A DNA stretch of 64,000 nt from NCBI RefSeq assembly GCF_055900595.2, contig NZ_CM148325.1. One strand, given 5' to 3'. Under the pieces are notes generated by a model. The model was not told the DNA's origin. It saw only the letters and a list, made by a program, of their open reading frames with translations, and made no database searches. Each line of letters opens with the position of its first letter. Positions within the stretch are counted from its first letter, which is position 1. The position numbers and the translations under genes were made by a program. Below, piece by piece: positions 14,286 to 39,465 of the stretch.

Positions 14286-15176
14286 TTATTTCGTCTGGCT
14301 ACGGGCAAACAGGTCGTCGAGCTTTTCTTCGTACTGGTAGTAGTTAATGCTTTCATACAGCTCGTTGCGGGTCTGCATGGTGTCGATGACGCTTTTCTGC
14401 GTGCCTTCCTGGCGCAGGACGTTGTAGACATGTTCAGCGGCGCGGTTCATTGCGCGGAAAGCAGAAAGGGGATACAGCGCCATTGCGACATGGGCGCTGC
14501 GTAATTCGTCGGTGGTAAACAGCGGCGTGGCACCAAATTCAGTAATGTTGGCAAGGATCGGCACCTGCACCGCATCGGCAAACTGGCGGTACATGGCGAG
14601 TTCGGTAATTGCTTCCGGGAACAACATCTCGGCACCCGCTTCAACATAGGCCTGCGCACGCTCGATCGCCGCATCCAGCCCCTCTACCGCCAGCGCATCG
14701 GTGCGCGCCATGATCACAAAATCAGGATCGGTTTTCGCATCCACCGCCGCGCGGATCCGATCCACCATCTCTTCTTTCGAGACGATCGCTTTGTTCGGGC
14801 GATGACCGCAGCGTTTTGCTCCAACCTGATCTTCAATATGTAAGCCCGCCGCACCGGCTTTAATCATCGATTTCACGGTGCGGGCAACGTTAAAGGCCGA
14901 AGAGCCAAAACCGATATCCGCATCCACCAGCAGCGGCAGCGAGCAGACGTCGGTGATACGACGAATATCAGTCAACACATCATCAAGAGTAGAAATACCG
15001 AGATCCGGCAACCCCAGCGAACCTGCCGCCACACCACCGCCGGAGAGATAAATCGCCTGATATCCGGCACGCTGCGCCAGCAGCGCATGGTTGGCGTTAA
15101 TGGTGCCGACAATCTGCAATGGATTTTCTTTAGACAGTGCAGCGCGAAACGCTTTACCTGGAGAGTGTAGAGACAT
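14286..15176 (-). CDS. prpB: 2-methylisocitrate lyase, 296 aa
   Basis: Isocitrate lyase/PEP mutase family ORF; first gene of the prp operon, downstream of a sigma54 promoter. Confidence 0.94.
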
Positions 15177-15371: not shown

Positions 15372-15414
15372 AAGACTAAACCCAATATTCGGTTTCTTAA
15401 CTTTGCGGTGCGCT

Positions 15415-17001
15415 ATGGCACATCCACCACGGCTGAATGACGACAAACCGGTTATCTGGACGGTATCTGTAACGCGGCTGTTCGAGCTGTTTCGCGATAT
15501 CAGTCTCGAGTTTGATCACCTGGCGAATATCACCCCTATTCAGCTTGGCTTTGAAAAAGCGGTGACCTACATCCGCAAAAAACTGGCCAGCGAACGCTGC
15601 GACGCCATCATTGCCGCTGGCTCTAACGGTGCGTACCTGAAAAGCCGCCTGTCGGTACCGGTGATTCTGATAAAACCGAGTGGCTACGATGTGTTACAGG
15701 CGCTGGCAAAAGCCGGAAAACTCACCTCTTCTATCGGCGTTGTCACCTATCAGGAAACCATTCCGGCACTGGTAGCGTTTCAAAAAACCTTTAATTTGCG
15801 CCTCGACCAACGTAGCTACATTACCGAAGAAGACGCACGCGGGCAGATTAACGAGCTAAAAGCTAACGGCACCGAAGCGGTGGTCGGTGCGGGGCTGATT
15901 ACCGATCTGGCAGAAGAAGCCGGAATGACCGGAATTTTTATTTATTCCGCCGCCACCGTGCGCCAGGCGTTCAGCGATGCGCTGGATATGACGCGCATGT
16001 CGTTACGCCATAACACTCACGATGCCACCCGCAACGCCCTGCGTACTCGTTACGTGCTGGGCGATATGCTCGGTCAATCACCACAGATGGAACAGGTACG
16101 GCAGACTATTTTGCTGTATGCCCGCTCCAGTGCGGCGGTGTTGATTGAAGGGGAAACGGGGACGGGCAAAGAGCTGGCGGCCCAGGCGATTCATCGGGAA
16201 TATTTTGCCCGCCACGATGCGCGACAGGGCAAAAAGTCGCATCCGTTTGTTGCCGTCAACTGCGGGGCGATTGCTGAATCTCTGCTGGAAGCGGAGCTGT
16301 TTGGCTATGAGGAAGGAGCGTTTACCGGCTCGCGACGCGGAGGACGCGCCGGGCTGTTTGAAATCGCCCACGGTGGCACGCTGTTTCTTGACGAGATAGG
16401 CGAAATGCCGCTGCCGTTGCAGACCCGGCTACTGCGGGTGCTGGAAGAAAAAGAGGTCACTCGCGTCGGCGGGCATCAGCCTGTTCCGGTGGATGTGCGG
16501 GTTATTAGCGCCACTCACTGCAATCTCGAAGAGGATATGCAGCAAGGGCGTTTTCGCCGTGATCTGTTTTATCGACTGAGTATTTTGCGTCTGCAATTGC
16601 CGCCGCTACGCGAGCGGGTGGCGGATATTCTGCCGCTGGCGGAAAGCTTTTTGAAAGTGTCACTGGCGGCACTTACTGCGCCTTTTTCTTCCGCGTTACG
16701 TCAGGGATTACAGGCAAGTGAAACTGTGCTATTGCGCTACAACTGGCCGGGAAATATTCGTGAACTGCGCAATATGATGGAACGACTGGCGCTATTTTTA
16801 AGTGTGGAACCAACGCCGGATTTAACGCCGCAATTTTTGCAGTTGCTACTGCCGGAACTGGCGCGCGAGTCGGAGGAAACTCCCGCTCCACGTTTACTGA
16901 CGCCACAACAGGCACTGGAGAAATTTAATGGCGATAAAACTGCCGCGGCCAATTATTTAGGTATCAGCCGAACGACATTCTGGCGGCGGCTGAAAAACTG
17001 A
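15415..17001 (+). CDS. prpR: sigma54-dependent transcriptional activator of the prp operon, 528 aa
   Basis: AAA+ sigma54-interaction domain ([13 protein letters not shown] motifs) and C-terminal HTH; ATG at 15415 ([15 protein letters not shown]) inside ORF 15403..17001. Confidence 0.93.
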
Positions 17002-17004
17002 AAT

Positions 17005-17040
17005 GCCGAATCCAGCGCGAACGCCTTATCCGGCATAAAT
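17005..17040. repeat. REP element downstream of prpR
   Basis: tgccgaatccagcgcgaacgccttatccggca. Confidence 0.5.
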
Positions 17041-17098: not shown

Positions 17099-17374
17099 TT
17101 ATTTCTTCTTATAAATATTTGCCGTGCCGTGGATCTTATTGTCAGTTTGACCAGAGGTCAGCACCAACACATCTGCCCCTTTTTCATCCGCTTTTTTGAT
17201 CAGATCTTCTTTCGCATCTGCAGTCGACATTTCATTACTGGTTGAAATATCACCTATTTTTTCGTACTGCGATGCAACTTTTTCAAATTCCGCTTTGGTC
17301 ATTAATTCTGCGGCATAAACGTTGGTAACGGCAAACGCTAACGCACCGATTAACATTTTAGAGATTATTTTCAT
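17099..17374 (-). CDS. yahO: small periplasmic DUF1471-family protein, 91 aa
   Basis: Signal peptide [23 protein letters not shown] followed by a small soluble domain; position next to prpR as in K-12. Confidence 0.85.
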
Positions 17375-17558: not shown

Positions 17559-18191
17559 ATGGATCCCTTGCACGCCGTTTACCTGACCGTAGGACTGTTC
17601 GTGATGACTTTTTTTAATCCGGGAGCCAATCTTTTTGTGGTGGTACAAACCAGCCTGGCTTCCGGTCGACGCGCAGGAGTGCTGACCGGGTTGGGCGTGG
17701 CACTGGGCGATGCGTTTTATTCCGGGTTGGGTTTGTATGGTCTTGCGACACTCATTACGCAGTGTGAGGAGATTTTTTCGCTTATCAGAATCGTAGGCGG
17801 CGCTTATCTCTTATGGTTTGCGTGGTGCAGCATGCGCCGCCAGTCAACACCGCAAATAAGCACACTACAACAACCGATTAGCGCCCCCTGGTATGTCTTT
17901 TTTCGCCGTGGATTAATTACCGATCTCTCTAATCCACAGACCGTTTTATTTTTTATCAGTATTTTCTCAGTAACGTTAAATGCTGAAACACCAACTTGGG
18001 CACGTTTAATGGCCTGGACGGGAATTGTGTTCGCATCAATTATCTGGCGAGTCTTTCTTAGTCAGGCGTTTTCTTTGCCCGCTGTGCGTCGTGCTTATGG
18101 GCGTATGCAACGCGTTGCCAGTCGGGTTATTGGTGCAATTATTGGTGTATTCGCGCTACGCCTGATTTACGAAGGAGTAACACAGCGGTGA
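17559..18191 (+). CDS. yahN: LysE/RhtB-family amino-acid exporter-like membrane protein
   Basis: 210-aa hydrophobic ORF; an upstream ATG pair at 17521 is out of frame and hits a stop after 21 codons. Confidence 0.85.
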   Translation: MDPLHAVYLTVGLFVMTFFNPGANLFVVVQTSLASGRRAGVLTGLGVALGDAFYSGLGLYGLATLITQCEEIFSLIRIVGGAYLLWFAWCSMRRQSTPQISTLQQPISAPWYVFFRRGLITDLSNPQTVLFFISIFSVTLNAETPTWARLMAWTGIVFASIIWRVFLSQAFSLPAVRRAYGRMQRVASRVIGAIIGVFALRLIYEGVTQR

Positions 18192-18316
18192 GCAGATAAT
18201 TTACTCTCTACGTAATCAACCTGATTTGCCGAATCCCGCTCATCGGCGATGATACCCCCCGTAATGCGTGGTCCTTATTTCCGATAAGTTTACTTGAGTC
18301 TTTAGCTTCCCATTTC

Positions 18317-18346
18317 AGCCCACTCTCCCCTGTGTGGGCTTTTTTC
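18317..18346 (+). terminator. Rho-independent terminator about 125 nt downstream of yahN
   Basis: agcccac-tctcccctgt-gtgggct hairpin followed by TTTTTTC. Confidence 0.7.
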
Positions 18347-18437
18347 ATTTGTCTGCTTCAGTGAGTAGCTGGCCATGCTCCATCCACTCTGCAAGGATGA
18401 TAATAAGAGGATCTGATTCAGAAGAGTTTTGAAAAAT

Positions 18438-18518
18438 TGGACCGCCATCGAGGCCTCGAACCCCGTACCATACAACAATCCTGGTTGTCGTCTGCTCTTC
18501 CTGATGAGCTAATGGCGG
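18438..18518 (-). ncRNA. tRNA-like element (degenerate; possible pseudo-tRNA or integration scar)
   Basis: Minus strand: perfect 7-bp acceptor stem CCGCCAT/ATGGCGG, D-arm GCTC-ATCAGGAA-GAGC, T-arm CGGGG-TTCGAGG-CCTCG, discriminator T then CCA; anticodon arm non-canonical (loop CAGGATT, no U33) with 4 extra nt before it. Confidence 0.45.
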
Positions 18519-18820
18519 TTTGTGATATGAGCCTTACAGCATATTGTCTGTCAGGCTTGAGTGCGATGCGTAAGATACAGAAAAGACCCCACACAAACAT
18601 GATGGAATTATGATTTTTTTCATATGAATGTCAACCAACACATTCATAAAACACTCGCACAAGTTCACTTTTTAAGCAACATGACGCCGATCACAACAAA
18701 ATATCGGCGAAAAAGGAGGGTAAATGCCATTTGACGTAGAGATAAGCAGATGAAATGATTACCCGCTTTGCGATTCACTCTCTGATGGAATAACAAATTG
18801 GAGATGGAAAAGTTTCTAAA

Positions 18821-19636
18821 CTAAAGAGTGTAGCGTATTTTAACGTGCTTATTTACAGGATAATATTTGTCACCTAATTCCTGCACTCTATTAGATACCC
18901 ATTGATTTAATCGTGCATCATCTCTGTATGTTTTCACGTTCAGAACGGAGAGCAATAACATCACTAGCGATTCAGGAAAAACAGGGTAAATATTTTTTAA
19001 GTGCAATAATAATTCATACGCAAGCGCCTGCTTAATAGGTGCGTCTGCATCCGGAATGCGCGACATTTCGCGAAGCCATTTTTCTACATGCTCACATTCT
19101 TTCCCTTCACGGAAAAGTCTCAACAAAGGCATATGGTGCTCAAGAAGAATGCATTTGCAATCTGTTCGTACTGAATCGATAAACTGCACTAATTTCTTAA
19201 GTCCGGTGAAGCGTCCGGCATGGATATTCTCTTTAATATCAAGAAACACGTCATCCTGATCATATACCCAAACGGTCCCTTTTTGATTTTCAAGTATCCG
19301 AAAAACAAACTTAATCGGGTAATCAGGGTAATCCACCCAGTCATAAACTCCAGGGAAATCATTAAACTGCACATTTATGGTAAGCGCATTGTCGGCTGCC
19401 CACTCGCAATCTCGTACGGCAGCCATGAGATAAATGAGTTTATCATCATCGACTAAATCATCACGACAATCATAAGGATAATCATAGTATTGTTTAATCA
19501 AAACCTTGAATATATCGACACAAGAAACCAGTGTACTTCTGATATCTTCAGGTAACTGATTGTTTTTAAACGTATTGTGTACGCTTTGTTTCGTATATAG
19601 CAACAAATTATTGTGCGGCGCTTTTAATGGTATCAT
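18821..19636 (-). CDS. yahL: uncharacterised protein, 271 aa, in an AT-rich segment
   Basis: Long ORF with clear ATG in a visibly AT-rich stretch; position between yahN and yahK. Confidence 0.75.
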   Translation of the reverse strand: MIPLKAPHNNLLLYTKQSVHNTFKNNQLPEDIRSTLVSCVDIFKVLIKQYYDYPYDCRDDLVDDDKLIYLMAAVRDCEWAADNALTINVQFNDFPGVYDWVDYPDYPIKFVFRILENQKGTVWVYDQDDVFLDIKENIHAGRFTGLKKLVQFIDSVRTDCKCILLEHHMPLLRLFREGKECEHVEKWLREMSRIPDADAPIKQALAYELLLHLKNIYPVFPESLVMLLLSVLNVKTYRDDARLNQWVSNRVQELGDKYYPVNKHVKIRYTL

Positions 19637-19878
19637 TGCGATCTCTCTTAAATAAAAATAAACGTCGCAGATAATAAAGCCCTGATTAAACCAGGCACTA
19701 TCAGAAATCGCTCATAACTAACGAGTGAAGTATTGTGTACTGGAGGGAGTTATTTTAACAATTTGAATTTACGTTATAGGTTTTACCGCTACTTTGATAT
19801 TATTTCGCTCTCCTTAACTAAAAAGTTAAGTGGAGAGCGAAGTTAATATGTTAAACCACAGGGTATTTATTAATTGTT

Positions 19879-20928
19879 TCAGTCTGTTAGTGTGCGATTA
19901 TCGATAACAAAACGATATTTCACATCTCCTCGCAGCATTCGCTCATAGGCTTCATTAATTTGATCGGCCCGAATCATCTCTATATCAGCCACGATGCCAT
20001 GTTCGGCGCAAAAATCGAGCATCTCCTGTGTTTCTGGAATGCCGCCAATCATAGAGCCGGCTATCGCGCGGCGTTTCATGATCAGGTTGAAAACTTCCGG
20101 CGATTTATGCGGTGTCGCAGGCGCACCAACCAGCGTCATGGTGCCATCGCGCTTCAGCAAGGTGGTAAAATCGTCGAGATTATGTGGCGCAGCTACGGTA
20201 TTCAAAATGAAATCGAAACTCTTCACATGAGCCGCCATCTCATCGGCATTGCGCGAGTTAACAACTTCATCGGCCCCAAGGGCTTTTGCCGCTTCGCGTT
20301 TTGACTCAGACGTGGTAAACGCCACTACATGCGCCCCCATCGAGTGGGCCAGCTTTATCCCCATATGCCCCAGACCGCCAATGCCGACCACTCCCACTTT
20401 TTTACCCGGCCCGGCCTGCCAGTGACGCAGCGGCGAGTACGTGGTGATCCCTGCACACAATAAAGGCGCCACCGCCGCCAGTTGCGCTTGCGGGTGACGA
20501 ATACGCAGAACATATCGCTCGTGAACGACAATCTGTTGTGAGTAGCCGCCCAGCGTATGGCCCGGTTCGTCCGGCGTCGGCGAGTTATAGGTGCCGGTCA
20601 TGTGATCACAGTAGTTTTCCAGCCCGTCTTCACACTCTTCGCAATGTTTACAACTGTCGACAATGCAGCCGACACCGACCAGATCGCCCGGCGCATATTT
20701 TTCTACCTGATCACCAACGGCTACCACGCGCCCTACAATTTCATGGCCCGGCACGCAGGGATAAACCGTCCCCGCCCACTCGGAACGGACCTGGTGGATA
20801 TCGGAATGGCAGACGCCACAGTAAGCGATTTCAATTTTGACATCATGCGGTCCCGGTTCACGCCGGGTAATATCCATCGGTTCCAGCGGTTGTTTAGCGG
20901 AATATGCACCAACAGCTTTGATCTTCAT
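19879..20928 (-). CDS. yahK: zinc-dependent alcohol dehydrogenase family aldehyde reductase, 349 aa
   Basis: MDR/ADH motifs (GVCHSD, GHEIVG, GIGGLGH); 349 aa. Confidence 0.9.
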   Translation of the reverse strand: MKIKAVGAYSAKQPLEPMDITRREPGPHDVKIEIAYCGVCHSDIHQVRSEWAGTVYPCVPGHEIVGRVVAVGDQVEKYAPGDLVGVGCIVDSCKHCEECEDGLENYCDHMTGTYNSPTPDEPGHTLGGYSQQIVVHERYVLRIRHPQAQLAAVAPLLCAGITTYSPLRHWQAGPGKKVGVVGIGGLGHMGIKLAHSMGAHVVAFTTSESKREAAKALGADEVVNSRNADEMAAHVKSFDFILNTVAAPHNLDDFTTLLKRDGTMTLVGAPATPHKSPEVFNLIMKRRAIAGSMIGGIPETQEMLDFCAEHGIVADIEMIRADQINEAYERMLRGDVKYRFVIDNRTLTD

Positions 20929-21014: not shown

Positions 21015-21971
21015 TTAAACCACCCGATCCAGTCCCAACATGCCGCGAGCCTGAATGAAACAGAGCAGCAACGTTCCCCATAAGGCCATCGTCAGGTAGG
21101 GGCTTATCCCGAGAATATTGAAGCCGCTTTCAATAATTTGCAGAAGAAACAGCGCCAGCACCATACCAATTATCCGCCCGCTGCCGCCGTCCGGATTAAC
21201 CCCGCCGAGTACTGCCGCGAGGATTGACACCAGCAAGTACGATTCGCCATAAGAGGCCTTAGCCGAGTTGAGTTTCGACATCATCAAAAATGCCGCTACC
21301 GCACAAAGCAAGGCGGAAATGACATACACCCATATCAGCACCCGACGCGTGTTAATACCGGAGTAAAGTGTTGCTCGTTCGTTAGAACCAATCAGATAAA
21401 TGGATTTACCGAGCGGCGTTTTCTCCAGCAATATCCACAGCCCCAGCGCCACTGCGGTAAACAACCACATCGGTAGCGGAATACCGAACCACTGTGCATG
21501 ATTCAACCACAGCACCCATGAGGGATAATTGGCAATGGCGCTACCGCCTGTCACCAGAATATTTACCCCTTTGAGCAACGTCATCATCCCAAGCGTTGCA
21601 AGAATTGGCGACACTCGAATACCGGCAATCAATACGCCATTACATAAACCAATTATCACCGCCGCACCAGCGCCCGCCAGCAGCGTAGCGACAACCGTAG
21701 TAATACCCGGCGGATACTGAGTCGCCACCCACGCCATCACCAGTGAACAGGCGTTAGCGGTAGCAATAATTGACAAGTTAATGCCGCCACAAAGCATGGT
21801 CACCGCCATAGCCAACGCCAGAATGCCCAGCACGGGCATTTGCGAAGCGACAGACTGGAAGTTACTTATCGACCAGAAAATCTCCGGCATAGTAATGCTG
21901 AACGCGGCAACAGTTAGCACCAGCAGGCCGATCAAATAAAACTCAACGTTATTACGCCACGATTTTTTCAT
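21015..21971 (-). CDS. sugar ABC transporter permease (CUT2 family, RbsC/LsrD-like)
   Basis: Polytopic membrane ORF; ATG at 21971 overlaps the stop of the upstream permease (ATGA coupling); ORF-track start 22001 is a GTG extension. Confidence 0.8.
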   Translation of the reverse strand: MKKSWRNNVEFYLIGLLVLTVAAFSITMPEIFWSISNFQSVASQMPVLGILALAMAVTMLCGGINLSIIATANACSLVMAWVATQYPPGITTVVATLLAGAGAAVIIGLCNGVLIAGIRVSPILATLGMMTLLKGVNILVTGGSAIANYPSWVLWLNHAQWFGIPLPMWLFTAVALGLWILLEKTPLGKSIYLIGSNERATLYSGINTRRVLIWVYVISALLCAVAAFLMMSKLNSAKASYGESYLLVSILAAVLGGVNPDGGSGRIIGMVLALFLLQIIESGFNILGISPYLTMALWGTLLLCFIQARGMLGLDRVV

Positions 21972-22939
21972 AGCAGACTCCGGTTCTGATGCTGACTCCA
22001 CGCCGTGGCGCTAATGCTGGCAACGATGATGATGCCTGTGATCAATGTTTGCCAGTAAGACGAGACTCCCAATAAATTTAGCCCGTTTTGCATCACTGCC
22101 AACAACACCACGCCGAGCAAAGTACCGGTTAACGTGCCGCGCCCGCCGAGCAAACTAGTGCCGCCAAGCACCACCGCAGCCAGTACTGTCAGCTCATAAC
22201 CCAGAAGAGAATCGGGGGCGACAGTCATCACCGTCCACGACTGCACTACACCCGCAGCACCAGACATCAATCCCATATAGCCGTAAACGAAAAGTTGCAG
22301 TTTCAGCACGCTAAAGCCGATGCGACTGGCTGATTCACGGTTCCCGCCAAGGGCATAAATTTTGCGCCCTACACTGGTGAAATTCATGATAAACGCTGTC
22401 AGCAGCACCACCGTAATCATGGCGATCAGCGGCAGACCAAGGCCATAGTCATAGCCGTCAGCATCGGTGTACTTGAACAACATTACCCCCTGCTCAAACC
22501 ACGGCGGAAAGTCGTACAGCCACACACCTTTACTCAACCATAACAGCAGGCCATAGAAAATATTCAGCGTCGAAATGGTGATGATGATAGAAGGCACCCG
22601 TAGGCGATTAACCAGTAAGGCGTTTATTAAGCCAAGTAAAATGCCGATGCCGCCCGCCAGGGCAAACGCGACAGCAAAGTTGCCACCCATTTTTTGTAGC
22701 AACAGCACCATGCCGTATTGCGCAATGATGGTCATTGCCGGAAACGAAATATCAATTCCACCGGAAATTAACACCACAAACAAACCACAGGCGAGAATAG
22801 TCAACATGGCATAGTTATTGGCGAGATCGTACAAATTACCGAATGTCAGAAACTCGTCGCTGCGCCAGGCAAGGCCAACAAACAGCACTATAATCAGTAA
22901 TGCCAGCCAGAATTCATGGCGTTTTTTCAGTTCAGCCAT
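21968..22939 (-). CDS. sugar ABC transporter permease (CUT2 family, RbsC/LsrC-like), 323 aa
   Basis: Polytopic membrane ORF; start overlaps the ATPase stop. Confidence 0.85.
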   Translation of the reverse strand: MAELKKRHEFWLALLIIVLFVGLAWRSDEFLTFGNLYDLANNYAMLTILACGLFVVLISGGIDISFPAMTIIAQYGMVLLLQKMGGNFAVAFALAGGIGILLGLINALLVNRLRVPSIIITISTLNIFYGLLLWLSKGVWLYDFPPWFEQGVMLFKYTDADGYDYGLGLPLIAMITVVLLTAFIMNFTSVGRKIYALGGNRESASRIGFSVLKLQLFVYGYMGLMSGAAGVVQSWTVMTVAPDSLLGYELTVLAAVVLGGTSLLGGRGTLTGTLLGVVLLAVMQNGLNLLGVSSYWQTLITGIIIVASISATAWSQHQNRSLL

Positions 22940-24416
22940 TTACCACCTCCGCAATCCTGGCCTGAGAACTGCTGTCAGGCAGGAAGCTATGGGTGATCTG
23001 ACCTTTTTGCATTACCAAAATCCGGTGGCTTTGATACCACGCTTCTTCAATTTCATCGCAGATCATCAATACCGCAATGCCATGAGCCGCCAGATCGCTG
23101 ATAATGCCGTATATTCCTGCTTTGTTGGCGATATCAACACCGACAGTCGGGCTATCGAGAATCAACAGTCGTGGCCCAATCGCCAGCCATTTGGCGATCG
23201 ATACTCGCTGCGCGTTACCCCCGGAAAGCGTATTCACCGGGAGATGTGGGTCAGAGACTTTGATGGTCAATGCCTTAATTAGCCTGTCCACCAGGTCACG
23301 CACTTTAGCTTCACTCAGAAAGCCGAAGCGATCTTTTACCTTGTGAAAAACAGTGCTAATGATGTTGTCTTCAATAGATTGCGCCATCACCAAACCGCGC
23401 GACATGCGATCTTCCGAAACATAACCAATACCGTGGCGGATGGCGTCCTGGTTACTATGCAGTGTAACCGGCTGACCGTTGATGAGGATCTCACCAGCAT
23501 CCGGTCGGGTCATACCAAACAGACTCAGACATAATTCCGTGCGCCCCGCACCAAGCAGGCCAACAATCGACACCACTTCGCCCGCTTCCACCCGCAAGTT
23601 AATATTTTGATATTCCCCATGACGACTTAAATTACGCACCTCCAGCACTGGGGTGCTGGATTTTCCCTGCCACAACTCTCGCACCTGATATTCAAACTCC
23701 TGGCCGGTCATCAGGAAACCGAGTTGTTTTGTGGTCATCTCTGCAGCCGGAAAGGTCCCGACCAGCTCACCATCTTTCAACACTGAAATACGGTCGGAAA
23801 CTTCCATCACCTCTTCCAGACGATGACTGACGAAGACCACGCAGATCCCGCGTTCCCGCAATTGATGCACCACCTGTAATAACCCTTGCACTTCCTGATG
23901 GGTCAGCGAAGCGGTTGGTTCATCCATCACGATCAACCGTGCGTCCTGCGCCAGTGCACGGCAAATTGCCACCAGCTGACAGCGGGCAATTGAAAGCTCA
24001 GAAACGAGCGTATCCAGTGGCAATGTGACGTTAATACTGGTCATTGCCGCCTGCGCCACCTCACGCAGACGACGTCGGTTAACAAACAGTCCGTGGTGAT
24101 AGTGATTCACGGCGATATTCTCCCAGACACTCAGGTTAGGAAATAAAGAGAGGTCCTGATAAATCACCTGAATCCCCTGCGCCACCGAAGCGGCGGGTGT
24201 CAGCTTTGACCAGTTTTTCCCACCAAGCGTAATTTCCGCCCCCTCATCCGGGCGATAAACACCGGACATAATTTTAATCAACGTCGATTTACCACAGCCG
24301 TTTTGCCCGGCAAGGCAGTGCACCTCACCCGACATAAAGTCGAGAGAAACATCGCGCAGCGCTCGCGTGGCATGAAACGTTTTGTTGATATGACGAAGGG
24401 AAAGGAAGGTTTCCAT
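22932..24416 (-). CDS. sugar ABC transporter ATP-binding protein with duplicated ABC domains (RbsA/LsrA-like)
   Basis: Walker A GQNGCGKST, signature LSGGNAQR and a second ABC domain; ATG at 24416 (METFLSLRH...) preferred over the TTG at 24431. Confidence 0.85.
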   Translation of the reverse strand: METFLSLRHINKTFHATRALRDVSLDFMSGEVHCLAGQNGCGKSTLIKIMSGVYRPDEGAEITLGGKNWSKLTPAASVAQGIQVIYQDLSLFPNLSVWENIAVNHYHHGLFVNRRRLREVAQAAMTSINVTLPLDTLVSELSIARCQLVAICRALAQDARLIVMDEPTASLTHQEVQGLLQVVHQLRERGICVVFVSHRLEEVMEVSDRISVLKDGELVGTFPAAEMTTKQLGFLMTGQEFEYQVRELWQGKSSTPVLEVRNLSRHGEYQNINLRVEAGEVVSIVGLLGAGRTELCLSLFGMTRPDAGEILINGQPVTLHSNQDAIRHGIGYVSEDRMSRGLVMAQSIEDNIISTVFHKVKDRFGFLSEAKVRDLVDRLIKALTIKVSDPHLPVNTLSGGNAQRVSIAKWLAIGPRLLILDSPTVGVDIANKAGIYGIISDLAAHGIAVLMICDEIEEAWYQSHRILVMQKGQITHSFLPDSSSQARIAEVVNG

Positions 24417-24464
24417 AGCATCCCCTGGCAATAAGAATCGGGGCTTTCGCCCCGAAGAAATGGA

Positions 24465-35467: not shown

Positions 35468-36556
35468 TCAACCACCTGCTTTCATTACCCATTCAGAGAT
35501 AAATTTATTACCCGGTACCGGCGGAGAGTACAAATAGCCCTGCAAAAAGTGTACGCCTTTACCAATCATTAAATCCGCCTGTTCCTGAGTTTCTACCCCT
35601 TCCGCCACAATACTCAGACCAGGCTTACGCGCCAGTTCGACAATATTGTCCACAATATGACCGGAGATTTCGTCAACACTCGCCATTTGCACAAACGACT
35701 TGTCAATTTTAATAAAATCGACCGGAAACGCCTGCAGATAACGATAGGTCGCATAACCCGTACCAAAGTCATCCAGCGCAAAGGTAATGTTGTGCTGATG
35801 AAGGCTGTCAAATATCGCTCTGGCTTCTGGCGTTACCGGAATGGGGTTGCGTTCCGTTAGCTCAAGAACCAGCTTGATTTTATCGTTACCTAATTTCTTG
35901 ACCAGGTTCAGACACTCTTTTTCAAATCCTGCGGCCAAAAAACATCCTGCCGAGACGTTGATTCCAATATGGAAATTATCCGGCAGCAAATGTTTTACTG
36001 GCATCAGAATATCCGCAGTCTGTTTCATCAGCTGGCGAGTCATTATGACAATAAGACCGGATGACTCCGCCAGAGGAATAAACTGATCCGGTGGGATAAT
36101 TCCCGTTTGCGGATGTTCCCAGCGGACAAGCACTTCACAGCCCGTCAGTACCCCAGTCTGCGCGCAGAAAACCGGTTGGATCCACGGTTTGAATTCGTGA
36201 TTTTCCAACGCCAGACTGATGGCTTCAGGCGTGACGATATGGTGATAGTGATTATCATTAATATATTTGTGACTATTATTACCCGTGGCGGATATGATCT
36301 CCGGATTGTACTGAAAGAAAATATCCCGCCAGAAAGTAATATCGCTCTGAATCCCCAGTTTCTCAAAGAGCTGTTTCTTTTGATGTGAAATGGTCTTTGC
36401 ACTGCGATTTCTGTACTGTGATATTTCTGTTACAGACATTCCCTGCATCAGCAGCTTGAGTAGCAGTCGTTCTTTCTCGGATACGCTACCAGGCAATGAC
36501 AAATGAACCGTTGTACCGAACTCTTGCAGAAAAACACGAAAATCACATGAATTCAT
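35468..36556 (-). CDS. pdeL: c-di-GMP phosphodiesterase with N-terminal LuxR-type HTH and EAL domain, 362 aa
   Basis: LuxR-type HTH followed by an EAL domain (ELTE motif); ATG at 36556 (MNSCDFRVFLQEFG). Confidence 0.9.
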   Translation of the reverse strand: MNSCDFRVFLQEFGTTVHLSLPGSVSEKERLLLKLLMQGMSVTEISQYRNRSAKTISHQKKQLFEKLGIQSDITFWRDIFFQYNPEIISATGNNSHKYINDNHYHHIVTPEAISLALENHEFKPWIQPVFCAQTGVLTGCEVLVRWEHPQTGIIPPDQFIPLAESSGLIVIMTRQLMKQTADILMPVKHLLPDNFHIGINVSAGCFLAAGFEKECLNLVKKLGNDKIKLVLELTERNPIPVTPEARAIFDSLHQHNITFALDDFGTGYATYRYLQAFPVDFIKIDKSFVQMASVDEISGHIVDNIVELARKPGLSIVAEGVETQEQADLMIGKGVHFLQGYLYSPPVPGNKFISEWVMKAGG

Positions 36557-37431
36557 GAACACACCTTTTATCTTTTATCGCTGTTCAGTATGAGTGATTA
36601 CCTGTGGATTCCTGAGCACACATAAGGGGTAACCATAAACATTAGCGATGCCATACGTATAACATCCCACATCACTATCAAGAAGATTATCTTTACCTCT
36701 GATGCTCGCTCAAAAACAGTTACGCTAAATACCTTAAAAAGGTAATCACAAGTCAAACTCAGGAGATAATCACGCAAGAATGCAATATTAAAATTCAGAT
36801 ACTCATTTTTGGTAATAAAGAAGTAGTTGGACTATTTCGATATTTATAATTTCCCACTACGTATTGACGCCCATTCATGAGTAAAGGCGCATTATATGAA
36901 TTTAACAATCCAGATCAACTGAAAATACCTCAACCTCATAAACACATAGCGTCAACATTCAATGACATAATGAGTAAAGATGTTGGTTATGCATACACGT
37001 CATTACTCTATGCCAATCCCTTAACAACCTGCTTTTTAAGACTGAATCCATTCAGCAATAGATAGCCAACATTATAACAATGACAATAAAAACAATATTT
37101 AAAACAATCAATAAAATATCAGACACAAACAATTAAACCTTAAACAACAAACAGTTACATTGATTTTAGTTGATTTGCGCTATGCGTTCCCCATGAATAA
37201 AGCGTCATTTCAAATTAGCACCAATATTTACATTAAATAAGACTAAGCTTATTGAACATTCACAACAGTCCAAACGTAGTGTTTGGGCTTCAATAGTTCT
37301 TTTCTTTTTTATTATCTGTTGCCTGGCAATCATCAATCGATACTAAGGGCTTAACTGTACAGATATAACGTATCAAGAGGTAAGAGAAACCGCGCCATAT
37401 GCAGACATGGCGCGGTTTTATGCAATAACAA

Positions 37432-39465
37432 TCACGCGTCCGGGAACATCACGCTATGGCCCGGCGCTTCACGATGGAGATGGATAAAGTTAAGGTGCCG
37501 CTCGTACTGGTCGAGAATATCGGTGATCACCTGCTCTTTGCTGTAGTCCATCAGGTCGTTACCCTGGCTGCCTTCTAACAGGAAGGTTTCCAGCCGGTAG
37601 TAGGTCGATTTACCGCTACGTGCGCGGTAGGTAAAGCCCGGCACCGAATATTGCTGCGGCCAAATCTGATAGACAAAGTTTTGCTCTTCGCCCATATGCA
37701 CCAGCAAATCCAGATGCCCCAGATGTTCGCCCTCTTCCGGCGGCAGGCTTTTTAGCTCGACGTACGCACCGCGCAACCGCAGTTCCTGCGCCACTTCTTC
37801 CATTGCCGGATAACAGACGGTTTCCATCATCTGTTTGGTGTAACGCGTGCCCGGATAATTCATCAGGCGCGAGAGACGTTTTTTCCAGCTCAGGCGATCC
37901 TGAAGCCCCAGCGGTCGCGGTGCGGTATCACGGTTGGCACTTTCACGGCGGTAATCTTCTACCTTCAGAGATTTATACAATCCCGCCATCACGAAGAAAA
38001 TCACAAAGCTGAACGGCAGCCCCATGATTACCGTGGTGTTTTGCAGCGCGGATATCCCGTTGGTCATTAACATACCGAGCGTCAGCAGACCAATGGCAAC
38101 CGACCAGAAGACACGCAGCCAGCCCGGCGCGTCGCTGTTGATATCTTTAAGCTGCGAGGTGAAATTCCCCAGCACCAGCGCGCCGGAGTCCGCCGAGGTC
38201 ACATAAAACAGCAGGCCAGTAATGGTGGCCACGGAGGCGCTAAAGGTAAATGCCGGATACTGCGCCAGCAGGCTGTAGAAGCCGCGCTCCGGATGGACCA
38301 TCGCTTCCTCGGCAAATGCCGCGCCGCCGTGGATGATTTCATACAGCGCGCTATTGCCGAATACCGAGAGCCATAACAGCGTGAAGGTAAACGGAATAAT
38401 CAACGTCCCCAGTACGAACTGGCGAATGGTGCGCCCACGCGAGATACGCGCCAGGAACAGGCCAACAAACGGCGACCAGGCTACCCACCATGCCCAGAAA
38501 AAGAGCGTCCAGTTATTCATCCACTCAACCGGGCGGTCAAAGGCGAAACTGTTGAGCGTCATGCCCATAAAGCGATTCACATAGTCGCCGACGTTCAGCA
38601 CCAGCGCATTGAGCAGGAACGAGGTGTCGCCCATAAACAGCACGAACAGAATCAGCCCCAGCGCCAGTGCGACGTTGAGTTCAGACAATACGCGAATGCC
38701 TTTGTCGACACCAGATGTCACCGAGATAGTCGCGATGATTACCGACAGCGCGATCAGCACCGCTTTCGCCGCCATTGAATCCGGGATATCAAACAGTACG
38801 CTCAGGCCATAGTTAAGCTGCACCACGCCAATGCCGAGCGTGGTGGCAATCCCGAAGATGGTGCCGATCACCGCTGCAATATCCACCGAGTGACCAATCG
38901 GCCCGTTAATCCGTTTACCGAAAATCGGATACAGCGCCGAGCGGATGGTGAGCGGCAAATTATAACGATAGCTGAAGTATCCGAGCGCCATGCCCATCAG
39001 CGCATACATCGACCAGCCCGTTAAGCCGTAGTGAAACAGCGTCCAGACCATCGCCTGACGCGCGGCCTCAATCGTCTGACCCGCGCCTTCCGGCGGCTGC
39101 ATATACTGCGTTACCGGTTCGGCTACGGAGAAGAACATCAGGTCGATACCGATCCCGGCGGCAAACAGCATCGCCGCCCAGCTCAGCAGGCTGAACTCAG
39201 GCTTAGACTGCTCGGGCCCGAGTTTCACCGAACCAAAGCGCGAACAGGCAATGCAGACCACAAAGACAATATAGAGCGTTGCCGCTAACAGATAGTACCA
39301 ACCAAAAGTTTTAGAAACCCAGTCCAGCGTGCGGCCAATCCACAGAGCCGAGAAGTCGCGAAACAGGATCGTTGTCAGGGAAAACAACAAAATCAGTCCG
39401 GCGGAAGTATAAAACACCACCGGATTGATTTTGTCCTTTTCCCTGCTGTGCGAAAGGTCTGTCAT
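37432..39465 (-). CDS. betT: choline transporter (BCCT family), 677 aa
   Basis: 677-aa polytopic ORF with a long cytoplasmic C-terminus; divergent from betIBA. Confidence 0.93.
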   Translation of the reverse strand: MTDLSHSREKDKINPVVFYTSAGLILLFSLTTILFRDFSALWIGRTLDWVSKTFGWYYLLAATLYIVFVVCIACSRFGSVKLGPEQSKPEFSLLSWAAMLFAAGIGIDLMFFSVAEPVTQYMQPPEGAGQTIEAARQAMVWTLFHYGLTGWSMYALMGMALGYFSYRYNLPLTIRSALYPIFGKRINGPIGHSVDIAAVIGTIFGIATTLGIGVVQLNYGLSVLFDIPDSMAAKAVLIALSVIIATISVTSGVDKGIRVLSELNVALALGLILFVLFMGDTSFLLNALVLNVGDYVNRFMGMTLNSFAFDRPVEWMNNWTLFFWAWWVAWSPFVGLFLARISRGRTIRQFVLGTLIIPFTFTLLWLSVFGNSALYEIIHGGAAFAEEAMVHPERGFYSLLAQYPAFTFSASVATITGLLFYVTSADSGALVLGNFTSQLKDINSDAPGWLRVFWSVAIGLLTLGMLMTNGISALQNTTVIMGLPFSFVIFFVMAGLYKSLKVEDYRRESANRDTAPRPLGLQDRLSWKKRLSRLMNYPGTRYTKQMMETVCYPAMEEVAQELRLRGAYVELKSLPPEEGEHLGHLDLLVHMGEEQNFVYQIWPQQYSVPGFTYRARSGKSTYYRLETFLLEGSQGNDLMDYSKEQVITDILDQYERHLNFIHLHREAPGHSVMFPDA

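Follow-up and report, generated by a model that had tools for sequence, protein, structure and literature searches.

yahL in a variable slot of the Escherichia prp/yah region: a probable old, H-NS-silenced accessory insert encoding an orphan protein

The DNA considered here, a stretch of 64,000 nucleotides (nt) from contig NZ_CM148325.1 of assembly GCF_055900595.2 (hereafter, the window), includes the Escherichia prp/yah region, and within this region lies yahL, a gene of 271 codons on the minus strand (18821-19636). On one side, the yahL segment is adjoined, as the initial annotation of the sequence had noted, by a tRNA-like element detected by ARAGORN (18438-18518, minus strand). Beyond it are a remnant of yahM with a broken frame (approximately 18208-18448, minus), yahN (17559-18191, plus), yahO (17099-17374, minus), prpR (15403-17001, plus), and prpB (14286-15176, minus), as read from the open reading frames (ORFs) and the annotation. 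On the other side are an RNA hairpin (19804-19841, minus) and yahK (19879-20928, minus; stop codon 19879-19881), and beyond yahK lies a sugar ABC transporter. We consider it probable that yahL is an old accessory insert, silenced by H-NS, that occupies a recombination-prone slot of the Escherichia chromosome and encodes a genuine orphan protein. yahL is already known and annotated as an orphan gene, and its silencing by H-NS is ordinary and in the literature. The details that are new, as far as we have found, are the definition of the slot, a deletion traceable to a single event, an estimate of selection, and an invariant RNA gene derived from argN.

The product of yahL has 271 amino acids (aa), a mass of about 32 kDa, and an isoelectric point of 5.9, and neither a signal peptide nor a transmembrane segment is predicted from its sequence. 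The acidic, Asp-rich stretch that had been remarked on at the outset is present: Asp accounts for 26 of the 271 residues and is densest in DYPYDCRDDLVDDDK, at residues 52-66. The window protein is 87% identical to YahL of K-12 across 271/271 aa (E = 9e-161; 90% identity in nucleotides), and the order yahK - yahL - tRNA-like/yahM - yahN is kept as in K-12. Full-length similarity and conserved synteny together place the window gene in the YahL orthologue group. The window allele itself is rare, with at least 99% identity in only 18 records, and the Prokaryotic Genome Annotation Pipeline (PGAP) names its product "hypothetical protein". In K-12, YahL (b0326) is an uncharacterised protein of the y-ome and has been listed as a "conserved signature protein" of E. 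coli/Shigella (PMC11057252).

The rarity of the allele has a counterpart in the surrounding DNA. A 1.75-kb region is matched at 99% identity or better in only 10 records and at 90-95% in 5150 records, and synonymous divergence (dS) between the window and K-12 is 0.23 for prpR, yahO, and yahN combined. By these measures, the source genome belongs to a divergent lineage. With the same three genes, K-12 and phylogroup B2 are sisters (0.13) and the window lineage comes next (about 0.22); outside these lie a further yahL-bearing lineage, represented by locus L008 (about 0.40), and a sister Escherichia lineage that carries Zorya genes (about 0.45), with E. albertii as the outgroup (0.57-0.68).

Across three of these lineages, the window, K-12 (87% aa identity), and L008 (76%), the frame of 271 codons is intact and free of indels. 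The ratio of nonsynonymous to synonymous divergence (dN/dS, Nei-Gojobori) for yahL is 0.198 against K-12 and 0.194 against L008, while the values for prpB, prpR, yahO, yahN, and yahK fall between 0.01 and 0.07. yahL is thus under purifying selection that is four to eight times more relaxed than that on its neighbors. The dS of yahL is 0.31 against K-12 and 0.61 against L008; the flanking genes give 0.16-0.25 and 0.27-0.65, respectively, with yahN and yahK at 0.62-0.65 in the L008 comparison. Because the dS of yahL matches that of its flanks, the gene has passed down vertically together with the flanking genes from a time before the divergence of these lineages, and any transfer is ancient.

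The segment from 18600 to 19880 is indeed more AT-rich than its flanks, as had been judged by eye. At 0.370, its GC content is lower than that of any other 1281-bp window in the 64 kb (mean 0.502, standard deviation 0.053; 0.08th percentile), and composition across the region is not uniform. In a sliding profile, GC lies at 0.35-0.42 over 18400-19999, and prpR and yahK lie at 0.51-0.59. The GC content of yahL itself is 0.384, with values of 0.51, 0.27, and 0.37 at the first, second, and third codon positions. A second AT-rich segment is found at about 35701-37880, where GC in 1281-bp windows reaches a minimum of 0.372.

Published data from K-12 indicate that such DNA is subject to H-NS at this locus. 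In a comparison of Δhns with wild type, yahL is up about 21-fold (logFC 4.39, P = 8.7e-21), which ranks it approximately 36th by fold change beside classic H-NS targets such as hdeAB, gadE, bglG, and ecpR, and yahM is unchanged (logFC 0.72) (PMC8894471, Forrest et al. 2022). In the same work, the source data of Figure 1b place yahL under "H-NS bound", and bound regions are listed at 344355-344451 and 344531-345085 (PMC8894471). Both regions are placed on yahL if the gene lies at about 344176-344991 in U00096.2, a position that follows from an offset of 776 bp between the end of yahM in RefSeq (344873) and in a paper using the older coordinates (345649). Expression of YahL has been reported to lie below 1 part per million (ppm) (PMC5053530). 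In vitro, RNA polymerase holoenzymes bind inside yahL, as seen by genomic SELEX (systematic evolution of ligands by exponential enrichment), with peaks of 5.6 to 27.1 (PMC5493296). In the window allele, two 9/10 matches to the high-affinity H-NS motif TCGATAAATT occur, one at 19176-19185 on the plus strand and one at 19509-19518 on the minus strand; thus, two of the eight matches found in the 64 kb with at most one mismatch lie inside the 816-bp yahL ORF. As a sign of binding in the window allele, these matches are suggestive only, and by analogy with K-12, silencing would extend to this divergent allele.

A scan for promoter-like sequences gave no enrichment (6 sites against 5.5 expected), and among the entries listed in cappable-seq transcription start site data, there is no clear start for yahL in either wild type or Δhns. 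A consensus scan marks a small, candidate terminator-like hairpin with a T-rich tail in the yahL 5' leader (19681-19695, minus strand), about 45 nt before the ATG.

Comparison of the contexts of yahN orthologues from other Escherichia species reveals that yahL fills a variable slot. The cassette spans 18653-19798, as bounded by homology breakpoints in E. albertii and in two loci of the sister lineage (L019 and L021), whose homology to the window ends at 18649-18652. In E. albertii, homology extends through yahN, the tRNA-like element, and its promoter to 18652 and is followed by 88 unrelated bases, which have no similarity to yahL; homology is picked up again at the hairpin (19799-19851) and in 34 bp left over from the 3' end of yahK, and yahJ follows. 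In the sister lineage (L019-L025), homology breaks off at 18649-18651, a left breakpoint shared with E. coli, and the cargo takes the place of both yahK and yahL: the slot holds ZorD, ZorC, ZorB, ZorA, and a 621-aa JukA-like protein (L023, 4524-15027), and then yahJ. PADLOC identifies the four Zor genes as a complete Zorya type I system (ZorA1/B1/C1/D1, with E values down to 0), and the content of the slot in this lineage points to a hot spot for defence islands. Citrobacter has neither the tRNA-like element nor the slot content. At the same anchors, then, yahL is carried by E. coli, the window lineage, and L008, and it is not carried by the Zorya lineage or E. albertii. Most simply, yahL would have been gained once E. 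albertii had branched off, then replaced in the Zorya lineage and deleted in the clade that includes ST131 and Nissle 1917. Loss of yahL in E. albertii, instead of a later gain, is conceivable.

Signs of a mobile element were sought at the borders of the cassette. No terminal direct or inverted repeats bound it, and no integrase or other mobility ORF lies between yahN and yahK. The 3'-terminal 25-mer of the tRNA-like element occurs only once in the 64 kb, even with 3 mismatches allowed, so there is no duplicate at the boundary.

Variation in content is seen elsewhere in the neighborhood as well. The interval between yahO and yahN is a second variable site, in which E. albertii has an unannotated ORF of 208 aa (L017, 5163-5789) and the Zorya-bearing lineage an ORF of 878 aa (L023, 16115-18751); neither matches PADLOC. 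Distal to yahK, the window carries the operon for the sugar ABC transporter (21015-24431), as B2 strains do, and K-12 has in its place just a 75-bp permease remnant before yahJ (L002, 6911-6985). From these arrangements, the yahK-distal side of the locus is also variable. Just past prpR (16962-17035, minus strand), there is a match to the REP-like (repetitive extragenic palindrome-like) Rfam family naRNA4/CssrE that falls below threshold, at 25.7 bits against a gathering cutoff of 59.5.

Within E. coli, yahL is not universal: of 5426 complete genomes, 4014 (about 74%) carry it with a coverage of at least 80%, and about 26% are without it. A deletion of 835 bp, corresponding to 18808-19642 of the window, removes the ribosome-binding site, the ORF, and 13 nt past the stop codon. 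A 140-bp query across the junction of a yahL-less strain matches over its whole length in 1073 genomes, about a fifth of the E. coli genomes, and in 1055 of these the identity is at least 99%; the carriers include O25b:H4-ST131 and Nissle 1917 (both of phylogroup B2). The identity of the junction across genomes argues for a single ancestral deletion rather than recurrent loss. The deleted segment is flanked by the imperfect short repeats CTTTCTGAACTAAA and CTCTCTTAAATAAA. This distribution bears on the use of yahL, which has been proposed as a universal E. coli/Shigella marker for quantitative PCR (PMC11057252). Since the gene is missing from about 26% of complete genomes, ST131 and Nissle 1917 included, the marker is not universal; the published primers and probe also mismatch divergent alleles such as that of the window, where two mismatches occur at 18937-18958, two at 19008-19029, and three at 19030-19048.

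At the other edge of the slot, the near-perfect hairpin that the initial annotation had placed downstream of yahK, at about 19793-19845, is real and extends precisely from 19804 to 19841. Its stem of 16 bp contains a 2-nt bulge, and the whole structure lies 38-75 nt past the yahK stop codon. Its calculated free energy (dG) is -21 to -25 kcal/mol (about -21 for the 41-nt core, where z is -7.5), with z between -4.8 and -7.5, and none of 200 shuffled sequences folded as well. The sequence after the stem reads AUAAUAUCAAAG on the minus strand and GUUAAUAUG on the plus strand; there is no U-tract, so the hairpin is not a canonical intrinsic terminator. It is kept in E. coli and is recognizable in L008 and in E. 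albertii, which is without yahL. On the minus strand, which is the sense strand of yahK, dG is -21.3 kcal/mol in the window and K-12, -19.6 in the B2 allele, -17.5 in L008, and -17.6 in E. albertii; the plus-strand values are -20.9 for the window and K-12, -8.8 for L008, and -13.2 for E. albertii. Substitutions in the divergent lineages that yield G-U pairs in the minus-strand fold appear as C-A mismatches in the plus-strand fold. Across these five sequences, the asymmetry is suggestive of an RNA role at the 3' end of the yahK transcript. Most likely, we infer, the hairpin is a protective 3'-end structure or a weak terminator of this transcript. Given its presence in E. albertii beside a remnant of yahK, the hairpin would predate yahL.

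The tRNA-like element has proved to be something other than the scar that had been proposed for it. It is full length and ends in CCA, with the acceptor, D, and T arms kept, and in place of the anticodon arm there is a stem of 7 bp with a loop of 6 nt; a search of Rfam gives no tRNA match to it, even at E ≤ 10. About 90 nt upstream, a scan finds a near-consensus sigma-70 promoter (TTGACA-16-CATAAT, 11/12 matches; 18607-18634, minus strand) that would serve the tRNA-like/yahM transcript and that marks the left edge of the variable slot. Not one substitution separates the element in the window, K-12, B2, L008, E. albertii, and the Zorya lineage, whose flanking sequences differ by 12-30% and whose synonymous divergence reaches 0.6-0.7. 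The promoter hexamers and spacer are likewise unchanged throughout this set, apart from two spacer differences in E. albertii. An active yahM promoter, repressed by IHF, has been reported in K-12, without coordinates (10.1101/2025.05.13.653802). A search of the literature on these intergenic regions and on argN-like tRNA-like elements returned nothing.

The closest known relative of the element is argN, the tRNA-Arg(UCG) of the ileZ-argN-argO cluster of Stx/lambdoid phages, with which it shares the acceptor, D, and T arms and the CCA end. Identity to argN is 76-87% and is highest, at 82-87%, for the non-canonical variants of phiP27, mEp460, and a phage fragment carried on a plasmid. It differs from argN in having a 4-nt insertion in the D arm, a replaced anticodon arm, and no Rfam tRNA call, and also in being chromosomal, solitary, and invariant in every Escherichia lineage sampled. 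On this comparison, the element derives from a phage argN tRNA. Complete, equipped with a putative promoter, and invariant, it has the appearance of a working RNA gene that has yet to be described, not of a scar, and the slot adjoins its promoter, at the 5' side, instead of its 3' end.

As had been observed initially, there is no intact yahM between yahN and yahL; the 81-aa frame of K-12 is broken by indels, PGAP marks it as "frameshifted" in a genome that is 99.9% identical, and the frame is also broken in L008. Despite this, the nucleotides of the remnant are almost invariant. Inside it lies a predicted and conserved intrinsic terminator for yahN (18318-18345, plus strand), in which GCCCAC...GTGGGC is followed by T6 and which folds with -13.7 kcal/mol and gives a terminator-type match. 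The position of this predicted terminator accounts for part of the conservation, and the rest may reflect an RNA-level role of the transcript that starts at the tRNA-like promoter.

Relatives of YahL were sought in 5.8 billion protein clusters and by an exhaustive HMMER scan of 1.84 billion representatives. All matches are confined to genomes deposited as E. coli, plus one rare paralogue, and the GTDB species representatives contain only two yahL loci. The paralogue, P0024, has 275 aa, is 26% identical over its full length with shared conserved motifs (E = 1.3e-11), and has four members; a search seeded with P0024 matched only P0024. Its DNA is missing from all 5426 complete genomes. A second candidate relative, P0010, was rejected, being a frameshifted assembly of ordinary yahL. 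A kinship to DUF2686 (YjfZ/YjiC), the family of another of the three "signature proteins" (YahL, YdjO, and YjfZ), was likewise rejected, with E = 2.2 in BLASTP against a YjiC-like neighbor and no match to the Pfam DUF2686 model. In Pfam, no family matches YahL (the best hit is DUF2931, E = 0.35), and NCBIfam and PHROGs give no match either. No PADLOC defence model matches at E ≤ 1, a tblastn search of 50,697 phage records finds nothing at E ≤ 1, and a profile search of the sequences in the PDB finds nothing at E ≤ 10.

The gene for P0024 has 30% GC and lies at the edge of an island adjoining iadA-yjiG (L005, 8001-8828; L009, 2489-16998). The predicted products of this island are an IatC/intimin-like adhesin, a SicA-like chaperone, an SseC-like translocator, a SipD-like tip protein, and a HilA/EilA regulator, the last at 628 bits against a cutoff of 589. 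The flanking DNA of the yahL and P0024 loci shows no similarity. P0024 and its eip-like island are seen in few genomes, all of which have been deposited as E. coli.

Structure prediction has been of no help. AlphaFold models of YahL have a mean predicted local distance difference test score of 52.9 with a 4-sequence alignment and 49.2 with a 17-sequence alignment. Foldseek against AFDB50 recovers only YahL itself (TM 0.34), with the next match at E = 0.2, and against the PDB, its best hit has E = 0.15 and TM 0.20. The models agree in their predicted secondary structure, which has N-terminal helices, a sheet of four to five strands at about residues 74-133, and a C-terminal helical bundle. Assigning a fold is not warranted. 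The first 29 or so residues are polar and contain no acidic residue, and no known effector family of type III secretion systems (T3SS) in NCBIfam or Pfam matches YahL.

Taken together, these observations suggest the following picture. The yahL cassette (approximately 18653-19798) would be an old accessory insert bordered on one side by the yahK 3'-end hairpin and on the other by the tRNA-like gene's promoter. It would encode a genuine, soluble protein of about 32 kDa that is found only in Escherichia and is under purifying but relaxed selection. Because this DNA is about 62% AT, H-NS would coat the ORF and, as the K-12 data indicate, keep transcription near zero. With transcription so low, yahL would contribute little under laboratory conditions and could be lost, as in the 835-bp deletion. 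We infer that horizontal transfer brought in the insert from a donor not yet sampled and that it did not arise de novo. Our working guess about YahL itself is that it is a conditionally expressed accessory factor, related to defence or secretion, and not a housekeeping enzyme. The initial annotation had regarded this DNA as typical of horizontally acquired, H-NS-silenced sequence next to a tRNA-like scar; the silencing is borne out by binding and 21-fold derepression in K-12, and the accessory nature by a distribution that is patchy and restricted to genomes deposited as E. coli, and it is the scar that has had to be given up.

Several points weigh against this picture. Neither an integrase nor a terminal repeat was found, nor a second copy of the tRNA 3' end, and consequently the case for transfer is made from distribution and composition alone. 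The source of the H-NS data itself classes yahL as "not horizontally acquired" by database criteria (PMC8894471). Those data are from the K-12 allele, which is only 90% identical to the window allele in nucleotides, and the placement of the bound regions on yahL assumes the coordinates of U00096.2, an assumption backed by the 776-bp offset and the gene list. Finally, published transposon data report a fitness effect of yahL disruption despite negligible expression, a result that fits poorly with a dispensable, silent gene.

A bolder account would make yahL the E. coli cargo of an undescribed, Escherichia-wide hot spot, with YahL an H-NS-silenced defence or effector protein of new fold and the tRNA-like RNA functional; as a whole, we think this unlikely. 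The specific proposal that YahL is a conditional effector (a type III substrate of the ETT2/eip kind) or a single-gene anti-phage factor, kept off by H-NS, seems to us quite unlikely. It gains something from the polar, acid-free start of the protein, from the presence of Zorya I and a JukA-like gene in the same slot of the sister lineage, and from the position of the sole paralogue, which borders an island with an eip/EilA-type translocator. However, this last argument is guilt by association from one rare paralogue that is missing in 5426 complete genomes; furthermore, no PADLOC or NCBIfam effector model matches YahL, no T3SS chaperone or defence partner adjoins the gene, and E. albertii is without yahL at the slot.

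It might instead be postulated that yahL is a non-functional ORF, decaying junk that is harmless under H-NS. Expression below 1 ppm, an apparently tolerated loss from 1073 genomes of the clade with ST131 and Nissle 1917, a constraint four to eight times looser than that of the neighbors, and the failure to detect a family or fold would all be expected of such a sequence. Yet dN/dS is about 0.2, far below 1, in two independent comparisons, and the frame has remained intact, equal in length, and free of indels at 76-87% aa identity. The order of GC by codon position (first > third > second) is typical of coding sequence, a full-length paralogue retains common conserved motifs at 26% identity, and a transposon fitness effect has been reported. 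We therefore hold this explanation to be very unlikely.

Another possibility is that of a classical tRNA-targeted island, in which an integrase-borne element left the tRNA-like scar and yahL was its cargo. The element does adjoin yahL, and its homology to argN of Stx/lambdoid phages implies that phage DNA did reach this locus. However, the element is complete, has its own putative promoter, and is invariant across the genus; the slot lies on its 5' side, and it is not a canonical tRNA. Nor is there an integrase or integrase remnant, a terminal repeat, or a second copy of the 25-nt 3' end in the 64 kb, and YahL has no phage homologue by tblastn (E ≤ 1) or PHROGs. This reading has largely been refuted already, and what is left of it is highly improbable. 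Least probable of all is the de novo birth of yahL from AT-rich intergenic DNA on the E. coli stem after the E. albertii split, which would explain the lack of homologues beyond genomes deposited as E. coli, the mere 88 bp between the same anchors in E. albertii, and the low AlphaFold confidence, but which must contend with a filler that does not resemble yahL, a length of 816 bp that is long for a young de novo ORF, and a full-length, 26% identical paralogue in an unrelated island without flanking similarity, which makes the family older and more mobile than a birth at a single locus would allow.

With yahL understood as a probable H-NS-silenced accessory insert, the locus offers a clean natural case of xenogeneic silencing, in which a single gene with defined boundaries occurs naturally in present, absent, and replaced states. 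As a landmark, the slot together with the invariant tRNA-like gene that anchors it may help to locate accessory or defence cargo in Escherichia. yahL is among the least-known genes of E. coli, so there is little risk that an established function has been missed.

The yahL gene can be compared with the AT-rich genes known to be silenced by H-NS, such as bgl, the hdeAB/gadE island, yagM, and ecpR. Like these, it has an AT content about 12 points over the genome mean, and in K-12, it is H-NS-bound across the ORF, strongly derepressed in the mutant, negligibly expressed at the basal level, and bound by polymerase in vitro. Unlike these, it is a single gene of 1.1 kb without operon partners, mobility genes, or a known counter-silencer, and it has no homologue in any other genus. 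The slot, in turn, can be compared with the chromosomal hot spots for accessory and defence cargo. It differs from them in that one of its anchors is a tRNA-like gene of phage origin, which does not vary and which has the slot on its promoter side, and in that YahL itself matches no defence model. It resembles them in having a shared left breakpoint, at about 18650, and content that is specific to each lineage between conserved anchors.

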